Source of the DNA: Acholeplasmataceae bacterium
Lineage (GTDB): Bacteria; Bacillota_I; Bacilli_A; Acholeplasmatales; Acholeplasmataceae
Assembly (NCBI GenBank): GCA_963667565.1
Contig: OY763415.1
Span: 736,001 to 800,000, forward strand
Length of the DNA: 64,000 nucleotides
Direction: 5' to 3'
Notes under the pieces: model-generated
What the model was told of the DNA's origin: nothing
Databases searched by the model: none
The model's input: the letters and a program-made list of their open reading frames with translations, nothing else
Translations under genes and position numbers: made by a program
Shown here: one piece after another, positions 39,808 to 61,188 of the stretch
Position numbering within the stretch: the stretch's first letter is position 1
How the letters are laid out: the number at the start of each line of letters is the position of its first letter

Positions 39808-40356
39808 TTATGATCTTAATGGTTTTAAAGCTTGACTCCATTGAATCACTTGTTCAAATACAAGTTTTAGGTTTTCTTCATGGAGTGGTTGAGGCTTAAA
39901 TGTTACATAATTATCAAAATCATTAAATAAAGACATAAGCACTTGAGTTCTCACATCAGCAACCATGAGTTCGCCTAATACACCTCTTAAATGTTCTGCT
40001 GCTCTTGCTCCACCTGCTGATCCATATGAAACAATACCTGCTGCTTTATGATGCCATGCATCTCTTGCAGAATCTAATGCGTTTTTTAATGCACCACTCA
40101 TAGAATGGTTATATTCTGAAACAACAAAGATGAAACCATCTAGTGTTTGTAACTTTTCATTCCATTTTACTACTGCACTTTGGTCTTCTGTTGTTCCAAG
40201 CAAGGGTAAATTAAATGTCTTAATATCGATAATTTCAAACTCTACGTTTTTGACTCCCTTACTCTTATCTAGGACCCATTGACCAACTTGAGGGCTTACT
40301 CTTCCTTCTCTGGTACTTCCTAATATAATCCCTATTTTTAAATTGTTTGCGTCCAT
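39808..40356 (-). CDS. NADPH-dependent FMN reductase
   Basis: GSTREGR, EYNHS.SGALKNALD, GGARA. Confidence 0.92.
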   Translation of the reverse strand: MDANNLKIGIILGSTREGRVSPQVGQWVLDKSKGVKNVEFEIIDIKTFNLPLLGTTEDQSAVVKWNEKLQTLDGFIFVVSEYNHSMSGALKNALDSARDAWHHKAAGIVSYGSAGGARAAEHLRGVLGELMVADVRTQVLMSLFNDFDNYVTFKPQPLHEENLKLVFEQVIQWSQALKPLRS

Positions 40357-57641: not shown

Positions 57642-58274
57642 TCATGTAGATGCTTTTTTCAATTGTATTTGCTGTTTTTTTAATTTTTTATCTCGTCTAT
57701 CAGAATAGATGGTCCAAAGTTTTAAAACGGTGTAGCTAGCAAATATACCGATATATAACCAAAATCTATCATTTTGTATAAGTATGAGATGTGCAGCAAC
57801 AAGTAAATAAAACACATAAGAAAAATAATGAATCTTCTTCCATTTTTTATATCCTAATTTGCTTCTTACAAATCTAAATGATGTGAGCGTTAAAGGTGCC
57901 ACGACCACAGCAGCAAGTATTCCAATATAAAATGATATTGTTCCATTAAAAATACCAATATCTTCTAAATGAAATTCAAGATAACCAAGTGCGTGTGGTG
58001 CAAGTAAAATAGTAGCAATAATTGCCAATTCACCACGAACTGATAATAATTGATTTTTAAATTTACCTTTATCAAGTGCGCCCATATACATCACAAGCAA
58101 ATACATACCAAAAGGTACATAACCTAAGCTAATGATGTTTGCATCATGTGATCCTACAAACGCTGCAATAAAACCTGTGATGATATATAAAATAACTGCA
58201 TATGCTCTAATTTGTTTTGAAAAAAAATAGGTAATAATTCCAGTAATTAAGGTCGTAAAGATGATAATTGTCAT
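57642..58274 (-). CDS. Ferric reductase-like/MsrQ-like transmembrane protein (copy 2)
   Basis: R.ELA, conserved His in APH, L.LTS, LG..W..IH..SY, AAH. Confidence 0.8.
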   Translation of the reverse strand: MTIIIFTTLITGIITYFFSKQIRAYAVILYIITGFIAAFVGSHDANIISLGYVPFGMYLLVMYMGALDKGKFKNQLLSVRGELAIIATILLAPHALGYLEFHLEDIGIFNGTISFYIGILAAVVVAPLTLTSFRFVRSKLGYKKWKKIHYFSYVFYLLVAAHLILIQNDRFWLYIGIFASYTVLKLWTIYSDRRDKKLKKQQIQLKKAST

Positions 58275-58786
58275 TAGTCATCATCACCATCTTCATGTTC
58301 ATACTCATGTTCATCATGATCGTCATGATCATCATGATCATCATGTGATGTTGAAGTTGTTGAAGTTGATGCACCTGTTGTTTGATCCACTGTTGTATTT
58401 GTTGTTGTCGTTGTTGATGTTGAAGTTGAAGGTGTCGTTGTTGCTGTTGATGCACCTGTTGTTTGATCGACTGTTGTTGCAGGTTGAGTTGTGGTCGTTT
58501 GATCTGTTGTAGTTGCATTTGGATCTGTAATATAAATGGTTGCTCCAGTTGCTTCATCAATCACAGCAATTCCATTTGTTGTTTGTGAATCATCATCTTC
58601 ATGATCATCATCATCACTATATGTTGAATCTGAAGTACTTGATGCTCCAGTAGAACTATCGATTGTCGTACCATAAATATCAGATGTTGCACCAGCAAGT
58701 GCATCTAATGTCTGAGTAATAGGTTCATTAACTAGTGAATAACCTAATACAAGCATTAACATCCCAAAAATCAATGTATTTTTCAT
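58274..58786 (-). CDS. Exported Thr-rich protein with multiple DxxTGA[S/T] flavinylation-like motifs and His/Asp tail
   Basis: N-terminal hydrophobic segment; DSSTGAS, DEATGAT, DQTTGAS x2, DALAGAT; RBS AGGAAGGA. Confidence 0.75.
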   Translation of the reverse strand: MKNTLIFGMLMLVLGYSLVNEPITQTLDALAGATSDIYGTTIDSSTGASSTSDSTYSDDDDHEDDDSQTTNGIAVIDEATGATIYITDPNATTTDQTTTTQPATTVDQTTGASTATTTPSTSTSTTTTTNTTVDQTTGASTSTTSTSHDDHDDHDDHDEHEYEHEDGDDD

Positions 58787-58846
58787 TTAAGTACATCCTT
58801 CCTTATAGTTTTTTTAATTTTATCATAAAAATCAATTTTTTTTAAC

Positions 58847-58885
58847 AAAAATACAATCTGTGTTGATGCTCATAGATTGTATTTT
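58847..58885 (-). terminator. Intrinsic terminator between the two modules
   Basis: aaaatacaatct..agattgtatttt inverted repeat. Confidence 0.6.
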
Positions 58886-58909
58886 CATAATTTACATTAA
58901 ATATACATT

Positions 58910-59542
58910 TTATCTTGTTGCTTTATGATATTTTACAGGTGTTTCTATTTTTTTTGCTTGTGGTTTAATAATAAGCATATACCCTTTTAATATGATGTAT
59001 ACCGAAAAGATAATGATATAATACCAAAGTCTTGTGTTTGCTAGCAAGATGACATGAAGAGCTATCAATATATAGAATATATATGATAGATAATGAATTC
59101 TTTTCCACGTCTTATAACCTAACTTGCTTCTAATTTTTCTAAATGATGTAAGTGCTAGTGGTAATAATAAGACCACTGAAGCAATACCAATAAAATATGG
59201 AACTGGATTAATAATAAAACCTAATTCAATTAAATAATATTCTAAATAACCATAGACGTGAGGAAAAAGTAAGATTGTGCCTATAATTGCAAGTTCTCCT
59301 CTAACGTTAAGTAATTGGTTTTTAAATTTACCTTTATCGAGTATACCCATATACATCACTAAAATAAAGATACCATAAGGAACATATCCATAACTAAAAA
59401 TATTTGCTGTTTTTGAATCTATAATTAAACTGATGAATGCTGCAATGCCATAAAGAACAAATGCATATTTTCTTATTTGCTTACTATAAAAATATGATAA
59501 AAATCCAAAAACAATGGTTGTAAAAATAATTGCTGTCATCAT
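58910..59542 (-). CDS. Ferric reductase-like/MsrQ-like transmembrane protein (copy 1)
   Basis: Close paralog of 57642-58274 (LDKGKFKNQLL.VRGELAII); three conserved His. Confidence 0.8.
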   Translation of the reverse strand: MMTAIIFTTIVFGFLSYFYSKQIRKYAFVLYGIAAFISLIIDSKTANIFSYGYVPYGIFILVMYMGILDKGKFKNQLLNVRGELAIIGTILLFPHVYGYLEYYLIELGFIINPVPYFIGIASVVLLLPLALTSFRKIRSKLGYKTWKRIHYLSYIFYILIALHVILLANTRLWYYIIIFSVYIILKGYMLIIKPQAKKIETPVKYHKATR

Positions 59543-59563
59543 AAACTTATCTCCTTAATTTAA

Positions 59564-59716
59564 CTATCTTGAGGCACCAGATGTACTATCTATAAGTGAT
59601 GAAGATGTAGAACTTGTTGTATTGCTTGAGCTTGTTGATAGTGAGGGGGATGCCTCAGCGATAAACGCAATCAATAATAATATGATGAATAAAGCTATGA
59701 CAAATTTGTTTTTCAT
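59564..59716 (-). CDS. 50-aa membrane-tethered Ser/Thr peptide ending in flavinylation-like motif (not in ORF track)
   Basis: MKNKFVIALFIILLLIAFIAEASPSLSTSSSNTTSSTSSSLIDSTSGASR*; AGGT upstream; same position as 58274-58786 in module 2. Confidence 0.75.
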   Translation of the reverse strand: MKNKFVIALFIILLLIAFIAEASPSLSTSSSNTTSSTSSSLIDSTSGASR

Positions 59717-60006
59717 GCTTACTTACCTATGACCCTTCATTCATTTTATATGACTATCTTACTAAATACTTTAGATATATATAGTCTATTTGCATGTAAT
59801 ACCACTAAGTCACACAATTTATTGGACATAAAACATATTTTACGATAATTGAAATACCTCTATGGGATTTATTCCATATAGACGATCTATATGAAAAGCA
59901 TATGACTCATGCATGATAAAACATTTCAAGTTTTTTATTACAAACTTCATAACTATATGATAAAATAAATATAGAGGGGCCACTGATTAAAACTTGGGAG
60001 GCATTT

Positions 60007-61188
60007 ATGGATGCAATTACTGCTGCTATAGCAGTTTCTATTTTTGCTTTGTTTTCATTCTTTGCGATTTTATTATCATCATTAAACAATCTAGAAACTT
60101 TTAAAGAAAATAAATATATCGTTTTATCGTCTTTTTTGCTGTTCATCTCATTGATGTCTTTAGTTTTTGATTTGCGTTCTATGCAAACCAATACACATCA
60201 TTGGTGGTCAGCTTTTTTATTTGGTGCTTCTTTTTATGCTTCAATTTCAATTTTGGTTGGTTTAATAAGAATTTTATACGATCAAGATAAATCAATCAAA
60301 AAAACTTTATTGATAGTAACCACTTTAATAAGTGGCACATGGTTTATTGCCCCTATAGTTTATGAAAATTATATTATACGTTCCATCTCAATTAATTTAT
60401 TGATTTCGGCTCCTTTTGCATATTTAGTCTTTATTTTTGCATATAAAAAAGTCCTGTTTTATAAATCTGTTTTCTTCTACTTAATAGGGATCATGGTTCT
60501 TCTTTATACATTCAAAAGTATTTTACTTATTACAGGTATAGATCAATCAGATTTTAATTCATTTACAGATATAACCATTTTATTTACTTTGATTCCATTC
60601 GTCATTTTAATTTCAACTTTTCTCGCTTATTTGTTAGAAAAAGAAAGACTTCAAAAAATTGAACTAAAAAAGAATGAGCTACGATTGAATTTGACTCTAG
60701 ATAAAATTAAAAGTATCAGTGAGACTGATTTAGTCACAAAACATGCAAATCGCTATAAGTTAACAATTGAATTAGAAAAACATTTTTATCAGTATATAAA
60801 TCATCAAAAATGTTTCTCTATAATGATGTTGGATGTGAATAATTTTAAAGCTGTCAATGATAATTATGGTCACAATAAAGGTGATCAGGTACTTAAGTAT
60901 ATTGCTGATGAAATCACAAGCATACTTCCAATAAATCATGTATTTGGAAGATGGGGTGGTGATGAATTTTTAATCATCATTTCTGAATCCACGATTGATC
61001 TTTGTTCTCGTTACAAAGAGAAAATACATCAACATTTTAGTCATCAATTGTGTCCTTATATTAACGATCATCTTAACTTAAGTATAGGTTATTCGACCAT
61101 TGAATCAAAAACTGATATAAATGAATTGCTACATGAGGCAGATCAACATATGTATTTAGATAAAAATAAAAGTGCAATTGCCATATAA
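60007..61188 (+). CDS. Multi-TM diguanylate cyclase
   Basis: About 7 TM; DVNNFKAVNDNYGHNKGD; RWGGDEF. Confidence 0.88.
   Translation: MDAITAAIAVSIFALFSFFAILLSSLNNLETFKENKYIVLSSFLLFISLMSLVFDLRSMQTNTHHWWSAFLFGASFYASISILVGLIRILYDQDKSIKKTLLIVTTLISGTWFIAPIVYENYIIRSISINLLISAPFAYLVFIFAYKKVLFYKSVFFYLIGIMVLLYTFKSILLITGIDQSDFNSFTDITILFTLIPFVILISTFLAYLLEKERLQKIELKKNELRLNLTLDKIKSISETDLVTKHANRYKLTIELEKHFYQYINHQKCFSIMMLDVNNFKAVNDNYGHNKGDQVLKYIADEITSILPINHVFGRWGGDEFLIIISESTIDLCSRYKEKIHQHFSHQLCPYINDHLNLSIGYSTIESKTDINELLHEADQHMYLDKNKSAIAI

Follow-up and report, generated by a model that had tools for sequence, protein, structure and literature searches.

The window analysed here is a stretch of 64,000 nucleotides from the genome of an Acholeplasmataceae bacterium (GenBank assembly GCA_963667565.1, contig OY763415.1, positions 736,001 to 800,000; window coordinates count from its first letter). 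On its minus strand, between 57642 and 59716, two small Ser/Thr-rich peptides are each followed by an MsrQ-like membrane protein. We consider it probable, on balance, that these four genes form a duplicated two-gene module in which a membrane-anchored peptide, flavinylated by ApbE, takes electrons from a one-heme flavocytochrome on the outside of the cell. The firm parts of this reading are the pairing of the genes, the peptide family and the conservation of its motifs, the cofactor residues of the membrane protein and the presence of ApbE in the genome.

Two peptide–cytochrome gene pairs in tandem

The order on the minus strand is peptide 1, membrane protein 1, peptide 2, membrane protein 2, then gnd and zwf, with a divergent GGDEF gene upstream of the module. 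Peptide 1 (59564..59716, minus strand, 50 residues) consists of an N-terminal hydrophobic helix, a Ser/Thr linker and a single C-terminal motif, DSTSGAS (residues 43–49; 59570..59590), with Ser49 as the predicted acceptor of flavin mononucleotide (FMN). After a gap of 21 nucleotides comes membrane protein 1 (58910..59542, minus strand, 210 residues; His95, His150 and His163), and the stop of peptide 2 (58274..58786, minus strand, 170 residues) overlaps by one base the start of membrane protein 2 (57642..58274, minus strand, 210 residues; R80, H94, L128, S132, W145, H149 and H162). Peptide 2 combines a helix at residues 2–20 with Thr-rich linkers, a tail of His, Asp and Glu, and five motifs, all likewise read on the minus strand: DALAGAT (residues 28–34; 58685..58705), DSSTGAS (43–49; 58640..58660), DEATGAT (77–83; 58538..58558), which the structure prediction places in a hairpin turn and which is the least certain site, and two copies of DQTTGAS (107–113 and 134–140; 58367..58468), which share identical codons and appear to be an internal duplication. 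The two membrane proteins are 55% identical and both exceed the PF01794 cut-off of 28 bits (40.8 and 43.5 bits); neither peptide is over any Pfam or NCBIfam cut-off. An earlier reading of the letters alone (the sequence-only reading) had described this arrangement of open reading frames (ORFs), with DSTSGAS ending peptide 1, four motifs in peptide 2 and DALAGAT as an addition to them, and its description stands.

The motifs are not a product of composition. Among 100,000 shuffles per peptide, at least one strict motif, D-x-x-[S/T]-G-A-[S/T], arose with a probability of 0.0003 for peptide 1, which has one, and no shuffle of peptide 2 (0/100,000) had the four that it carries; together with the family conservation described below, this excludes chance occurrence in Ser/Thr-rich sequence. 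Genome-wide, the strict motif is present in 6 of 10,499 ORFs of at least 30 residues, namely peptides 1 and 2, two proteins of the rnf operon, a protein that we take to be GAPDH-like and a 51-residue ORF.

The genome is a single 1.75-Mb contig (31% G+C, 99.85% complete), and the tandem is not an assembly artefact, since one contig from a second study bridges 58448–60100, covering peptide 1 and cytochrome 1 and running into the beginning of peptide 2. Run X1 possibly has the same source as the window and was excluded from the independent evidence. Among the differences listed for contigs of other samples (21 more lie beyond the listing), peptide 2 has nine substitutions, all synonymous, and its insertions and deletions are in frame, which is evidence that it is coding; the one substitution listed for peptide 1 replaces a Ser of the linker by Pro. 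On one contig of another sample, peptide 2 is about 30 codons shorter in frame (around residues 118–150) and its fifth motif is gone, an observation that is weak evidence because it comes from a single contig. A promoter scan returned 13 sites against 20.5 expected, and a terminator scan returned none on the minus strand.

A peptide family tied to one cytochrome clade

The peptide profile matched 64 protein clusters of 58–85 residues (about 60–70 being typical), none with a Pfam domain and, where named at all, mostly called 'hypothetical'. Matches occurred in 12/399 genomes of a class-level sample and 10/400 of a phylum-level sample, all but one weak match falling in two families. A profile of 21 membrane proteins had matches in 57/399 class genomes and 55/301 order genomes. 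Two weak matches to the peptide profile were set aside: a large lipoprotein (G144/L104), which has a single DPLAGVT and lacks a neighbouring cytochrome, and a 703-residue frame (G275/L067). Among named organisms, Acholeplasmataceae and Izemoplasmataceae hold the nearest relatives of the membrane protein, which suggests that the host is a free-living, wall-less member of the first of these families. The peptide family has a cultured carrier (P0222), named Candidatus Xianfuyuplasma coldseepsis by its source. A feature search with another family member (P0220) was uninformative, with a best score of 0.79.

Loci were read for the best matches of each search (at most 30) and for 11 metagenome loci, and the counts inside and outside the clade described here rest on these; upstream small ORFs were picked by position together with hydrophobicity or motif. 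In a tree of the membrane domain (FastTree, 207 rows; duplicates, two partial loci and the fused locus L029 left out), a 44-tip clade with a support of 0.966 contains every peptide-bearing locus. On a 64-row subset, IQ-TREE gave this clade a Shimodaira–Hasegawa-like approximate likelihood ratio (SH-aLRT) of 99; the deeper branches are poorly supported and we name no sister group. Within the clade, 38 of 40 loci have a peptide directly upstream (37 whole and one cut by a contig end), mostly overlapping the cytochrome gene or at most 12 nucleotides from it. Outside, none of the 22 unfused loci has one, and one further locus is a fusion. Many of these 22 follow a gene that we take to be TetR- or PadR-like.

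The two clade members that have no adjacent peptide (G151 and G461) encode a detached homologue elsewhere, with 7 and 6 motifs respectively, and a detached 5-motif form is found in G207; these forms sit between genes that are presumably ABC-permease-like and HPr-like. We regard the unit as two genes because at most loci the peptide follows a terminator-like stretch and has its own ribosome-binding site, while the neighbours differ. An 8-mer count over 33 upstream regions yielded poly-T, ribosome-binding and neighbouring-gene words only, and no shared operator.

The family consensus begins with MKN, about 16 hydrophobic residues and EP, and continues with motif 1 (D28-x-x-[A/S/T]-G-A-[T/S]34), a linker with T37, Y38 and I42, and motif 2 (D43-x-x-[A/S/T]-G-[A/V]-[S/T]49), so that the two motifs lie 15 residues apart; the C-terminal tail is usually, though not in all members, rich in Asp, Glu and His. 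Checked in homologues, the motifs proved to be the most conserved part of this cytochrome-linked family. In alignment A4, the D, the G and the final S/T of motif 1 are kept in 39/39 rows, as are the D and final S/T of motif 2, with its G in 36/39, and a set chosen by position (A2) has the same conserved columns. The ratio of non-synonymous to synonymous polymorphism (pN/pS) is 0.09–0.25 in four groups of close peptides.

Peptide 1 matches the family profile with an E-value of 6.3e-5. Its E21 and D43 fall at the corresponding positions of peptide 2, and it is a reduced family member that kept motif 2 but lost motif 1 and the acidic tail. Peptide 2, by comparison, has three motifs beyond the family pair (DALAGAT being the first conserved motif) and no Lys or Arg after residue 22. 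The contrast that the sequence-only reading drew between one mono-flavin and one multi-flavin carrier does not hold as a design: two motifs are the norm of the family, and the forms with one and five are derived here. The long forms are Ser/Thr/Pro-rich, and their expansions copy the motif itself, with differing linkers. Because the repeat units of the detached forms are unlike those of peptide 2 and their cytochromes belong to another subclade, the sequences suggest two expansions.

The AlphaFold model of peptide 2 has helices at residues 2–20 and 23–30, a hairpin at 73–86 and low-confidence strands at 125–148, with a predicted template-modelling score (pTM) of 0.24; its N-terminal helix is confident, and it shows no globular fold. 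The disorder earlier ascribed to the linkers agrees with the lack of a globular fold, but not with the modelled helices, hairpin and strands. FMN_bind (PF04205) matched 0/30 peptides and 0/2 detached long forms, in keeping with the proposal that the carriers have no folded FMN-binding domain. The peptide N-terminus, with Lys and a hydrophobic helix ahead of an acidic remainder, is compatible with an outward C-terminus, and the peptide is likely membrane-anchored. The family overall has no signal-peptidase-like cleavage site; peptide 1 may be cleaved and released, since signal peptidase I is encoded in the genome and an A-E-A stretch follows the helix.

The proposed electron path and points against it

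In E. coli, MsrQ holds one heme via H91 and H164 and FMN via R77, R78, L131, S135, W147 and H151, and its electron donor is a cytosolic NADH oxidoreductase, not quinol (PMC12525009). In the peptide clade, R80, H94, L128, S132, W145, H149 and H162 are kept in 44/44 members. The last five of these align with MsrQ L131, S135, W147, H151 and H164, and R80 and H94 were matched to R77 and H91 by their equal 14-residue spacing. Three His are conserved and Arg takes the place of the fourth, R80 aligning with an SpNOX His; this pattern, with the Arg present in 44/44 clade members, points away from a two-heme cytochrome, a reading that was rejected, and towards one heme plus FMN, so that the membrane protein is likely a one-heme flavocytochrome. 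Residue 149 is His throughout the peptide clade and Gln in 28/40 fusions and 19/22 other loci, as in STEAP.

A structure model of membrane protein 2 (predicted local distance difference test, pLDDT, 90.4) best matched STEAP2 (Z 10.9, root-mean-square deviation (rmsd) 4.4, 170 aligned), SpNOX (Z 10.9, rmsd 3.8, 158 aligned) and STEAP1/4. The model thus points to a ferric-reductase-domain fold, for which Z values on a helical bundle are supporting evidence only. Foldseek gave no match at E 0.001, and its top ranks were all ferric-reductase-domain or cytochrome b561 proteins. FMN_bind was found in 32 of the 36 longer relatives scanned (one other protein and 35 of the 57 above 280 residues among the best 150 distant relatives), and many relatives of the cytochrome are MsrQ-like/FMN_bind fusions.

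ApbE flavinylates the motif D-x-x-[S/T]-G-A-[S/T], and a 7-residue tag suffices for it, best at termini (PMC12052999). This genome has one intact apbE, in the rnf operon after the rnf genes (G000:C1:1470061-1471143; E 1.2e-48, 360-residue ORF, lipoprotein-like N-terminus). As its sole ApbE match, it lies about 675 kb from the module, and the window is free of apbE, as the sequence-only reading had stated. ApbE is a necessary condition for flavinylation, and its presence says no more than that. A genome lacking ApbE, or motifs that vary among homologues, would have refuted the sequence-only reading, which came through both checks. We think it very likely that the peptides carry covalent FMN on the predicted Ser/Thr acceptors.

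By analogy with E. coli MsrQ, electrons would pass from NAD(P)H to a soluble flavin reductase, then to FMN in the cytosolic pocket (R80, L128, S132, W145, H149), to heme b (H94, H162), to the covalent FMNs of the peptide at the outer cell face, and finally to an acceptor outside the cell, for which a soluble Fe(III) chelate or similar oxidant is the most likely candidate. In this scheme the peptide would take the place of the folded FMN_bind domain to which related cytochromes are fused, its two-motif core docking on the cytochrome and extra motifs extending the reach. That the peptide serves as redox partner of the adjacent cytochrome is almost as likely as its flavinylation, and an outward direction of flow is probable. 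The acceptor is the weakest step of the path, and Fe(III) is a tentative choice; FeoB is present in the genome, and the acidic His-rich tails could bind metal. UbiA/MenA prenyltransferases were not found over cut-off here or in 30/30 clade genomes, so the route would not need quinones of the host's own making. We are doubtful of a bolder version, in which 1–7 covalent FMNs on a flexible acidic tether, fed by a one-heme flavocytochrome, form a domain-free flavin wire, its length tuned as repeats are gained or lost, for extracellular electron transfer in wall-less, quinone-less fermenters.

At 39808–40356 on the minus strand of the window, about 17 kb from the module, lies the genome's only match to NAD(P)H-dependent FMN reductase (PF03358). 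It is a candidate flavin reductase, and nothing ties it to the module.

Several observations weigh against the outward flavin path. Alignment A4 was itself built by a profile search with such peptides, so that its conservation is partly circular. In 39/64 family matches there is no strict motif because the fourth position is Ala, which across the family is more frequent than any other residue at this site, three residues ahead of the acceptor, and some members have GVS, GST or ASAS variants. An Ala-to-Val change in the motif about halved flavinylation in one study (PMC12052999), and for a trypanosome protein a 9-residue motif alone was insufficient (10.1101/2020.12.30.424822). MsrQ R78 is not conserved in the clade, which has Gly or Ala there. 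ApbE occurs in 35/35 relatives, five of them without an in-clade module, and its co-occurrence, being uninformative for that reason, was dropped as evidence of co-evolution. In the loci read, the module has no conserved neighbour that is a terminal reductase or an iron transporter. Ferrihydrite and anthraquinone-2,6-disulfonate (AQDS) did not stimulate growth of one cultured family member, whose module status is not established (PMC11122141), and the available part of PMC8397711 makes no mention of ferric reduction. Ferrochelatase (PF00762), the only route of heme supply searched, is absent here and from 30/30 clade genomes, so that heme would need scavenging, and lumazine synthase was not found in this genome, so that riboflavin would be scavenged too.

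As to the fourth motif position, the same Ala is present in this genome's RnfD, aligned with the DGYSGAT site of NqrB, in two of its FMN_bind proteins and in 9/40 motifs of the longer cytochrome relatives, from which we infer that Ala is a tolerated variant.

Alternative readings and relation to known systems

The flavinylated peptide might instead shuttle electrons laterally along the outer face to Rnf/Nqr subunits or a short cytochrome bd, a quinone-like job with no export. Such a role would sit well with the three rnf/nqr-like clusters of this genome, with another PF01794-like paralogue directly before a short cydA, with the lack of UbiA/MenA over cut-off here and in 30/30 clade genomes, and with a cultured family member in which quinones were not detected (PMC11122141). 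We nevertheless think it unlikely: CydA is found in only 8/30 clade genomes, the module is unlinked to rnf genes in the loci read, and forms with 5–7 motifs better fit a reach away from the membrane. Somewhat less probable still is a peptide without flavin, acting as an assembly or stabilising subunit or as an O-glycosylated surface tether, with the motif as a binding or cleavage signal. The motif resembles double-glycine leader ends, most family motifs depart from the strict consensus, T37, Y38, I42 and the 15-residue spacing are conserved as well, and the long forms are rich in Ser, Thr and Pro. However, both sites have S/T after GA in 39/39 rows, as an O-linked acceptor should, the FMN_bind domain fused to related cytochromes has its flavin site at this same motif, and the expansions copy the motif, not the linkers.

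Inward flow from outside reductants, or quenching or sensing of oxidants at the surface, has in our view only a slim chance of being correct. NADPH oxidases share the fold (SpNOX Z 10.9), and the module stands just before the NADPH-making gnd in this genome and two relatives, but this link is confined to one genus, and in its cofactor pattern the cytochrome follows MsrQ and STEAP, which transfer electrons outward (PMC12525009). Ordinary MsrPQ methionine sulfoxide repair is hardly credible. It has in its favour a weak match to the MsrQ equivalog, which at 36.4 and 30.4 bits falls far short of the cut-off of 130, and it already fails for want of MsrP, there being no molybdopterin oxidoreductase domain (PF00174) in this 99.85% complete genome.

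If the peptide is indeed the flavinylated, outward-facing partner of a flavocytochrome, the module would be a functional analogue and variant of the MsrQ-like flavinylation systems. These likewise combine a PF01794 membrane protein with a carrier of the ApbE motif (PMC8238504; PMC11334425), and many relatives in the present comparison are PF01794-like/FMN_bind fusions. Membership of the published systems requires apbE, or a domain already known to be flavinylated, no more than five genes away (PMC8238504). Here, in contrast, the carrier is a domain-free peptide, and the five-gene definition does not fit: Pfam found no apbE, FMN_bind, DUF2271 or DUF3570 in the module, six downstream genes, three upstream genes and one further gene, a scan that stops with the window in the third upstream gene, short of the fourth and fifth. 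A NAD-binding or NuoF-like partner, common but not obligatory in those systems, is also lacking; the 210-residue membrane proteins match PF01794 only, and PF00175 matches the genome once, in an nqr-like cluster away from the module. The cytochromes form a separate clade in Acholeplasmataceae/Izemoplasmatales-like genomes, not in Actinobacteria. With E. coli MsrQ and STEAP (PMC12525009) they share the one-heme His pair, the Arg/His/Trp/Leu/Ser flavin pocket and the fold family, and they differ in having no MsrP, in not keeping R78, in scoring far below the NCBIfam MsrQ cut-off and in hosts where no quinone prenyltransferase was found.

Multi-flavinylated proteins resemble the long peptides in offering several predicted FMN sites per exported chain, like 'beads on a string', each flavin there being held by a folded FMN_bind domain (PMC8238504; PMC11334425). 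The peptides instead have bare 7-residue motifs, 12–34 residues apart on low-complexity linkers, and so fall outside the class as defined by at least two PF04205 domains. Motif sites beyond FMN_bind are known from the C-terminal extension of FMN_red (PMC11334425), the N-terminus of trypanosome FRDg (10.1101/2020.12.30.424822) and an engineered flavin-tag (PMC12052999). In these, as here, ApbE targets short motifs on terminal or unstructured stretches, but there the tag belongs or is fused to a folded protein, whereas here the gene encodes nothing but the tagged peptide, which would act for a membrane protein encoded separately. A literature search found no description of a stand-alone tag peptide or of this family, within a coverage that left out most subscription papers and also the large tables in the supplement of PMC8238504. 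The domain-free carrier class is new to the searchable literature; its parts list is known.

ApbE substrates have been counted by folded domains near apbE, and a 60-residue carrier far from apbE escapes such a census; flavin-based electron transfer may for this reason be commoner than counted. The peptide family is the smallest natural flavin-carrier design found in this comparison, and its long forms bear on whether flavins on a flexible string conduct like multi-heme wires, a question that multi-flavinylated proteins have raised as well. If the proposed path is true, it would give free-living Mollicutes-like bacteria without quinone prenyltransferase a transmembrane route for electrons.

Further ApbE-related proteins were seen in this genome and its relatives. 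A 332-residue protein of the rnf operon (G000:C1:1473089-1474087) has two strict motifs, DALSGAT and DLQTGAT, matches nothing in Pfam at E 0.001 and is likely a divergent two-flavin RnfG partner. A 346-residue lipoprotein that adjoins the module in two genomes (L012:2317-3357, and upstream in L046) contains DVPSGAT and DTIAGAT and may be another flavinylated partner. The ApbE match falls in two pieces within one 429-residue frame at G511:C1:1460869-1461939 and G469:C1:1210595-1211674, suggesting that some 70 residues have been inserted.

Two other loci of this genome contain cytochrome and rnf/nqr-like genes. At G000:C1:302920-309177 (L082), a third PF01794-like paralogue, with Gln at the inner His and no peptide upstream, precedes a short CydA (Pfam match in two stretches), cydB and rnf-like genes. 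The CydA match skips approximately profile positions 253–310 in eight relatives, and a paralogue is adjacent in five (G059, G257, G145, G109 and G383). CydA families without a quinol site have been described (10.1101/2021.01.16.426971). At L082:5805-6376, an rnfA-like gene is present as two ORFs (67 and 120 residues) with a stop between them. At the other locus, G000:C1:1203164-1210771 (L083), rnf/nqr-like genes come after a second cydB-like gene, the last of them encoding an NqrF-like protein; one ORF of 528 residues there seems to combine an RnfD-like membrane portion with an RnfG-like one that carries DEIAGVT.

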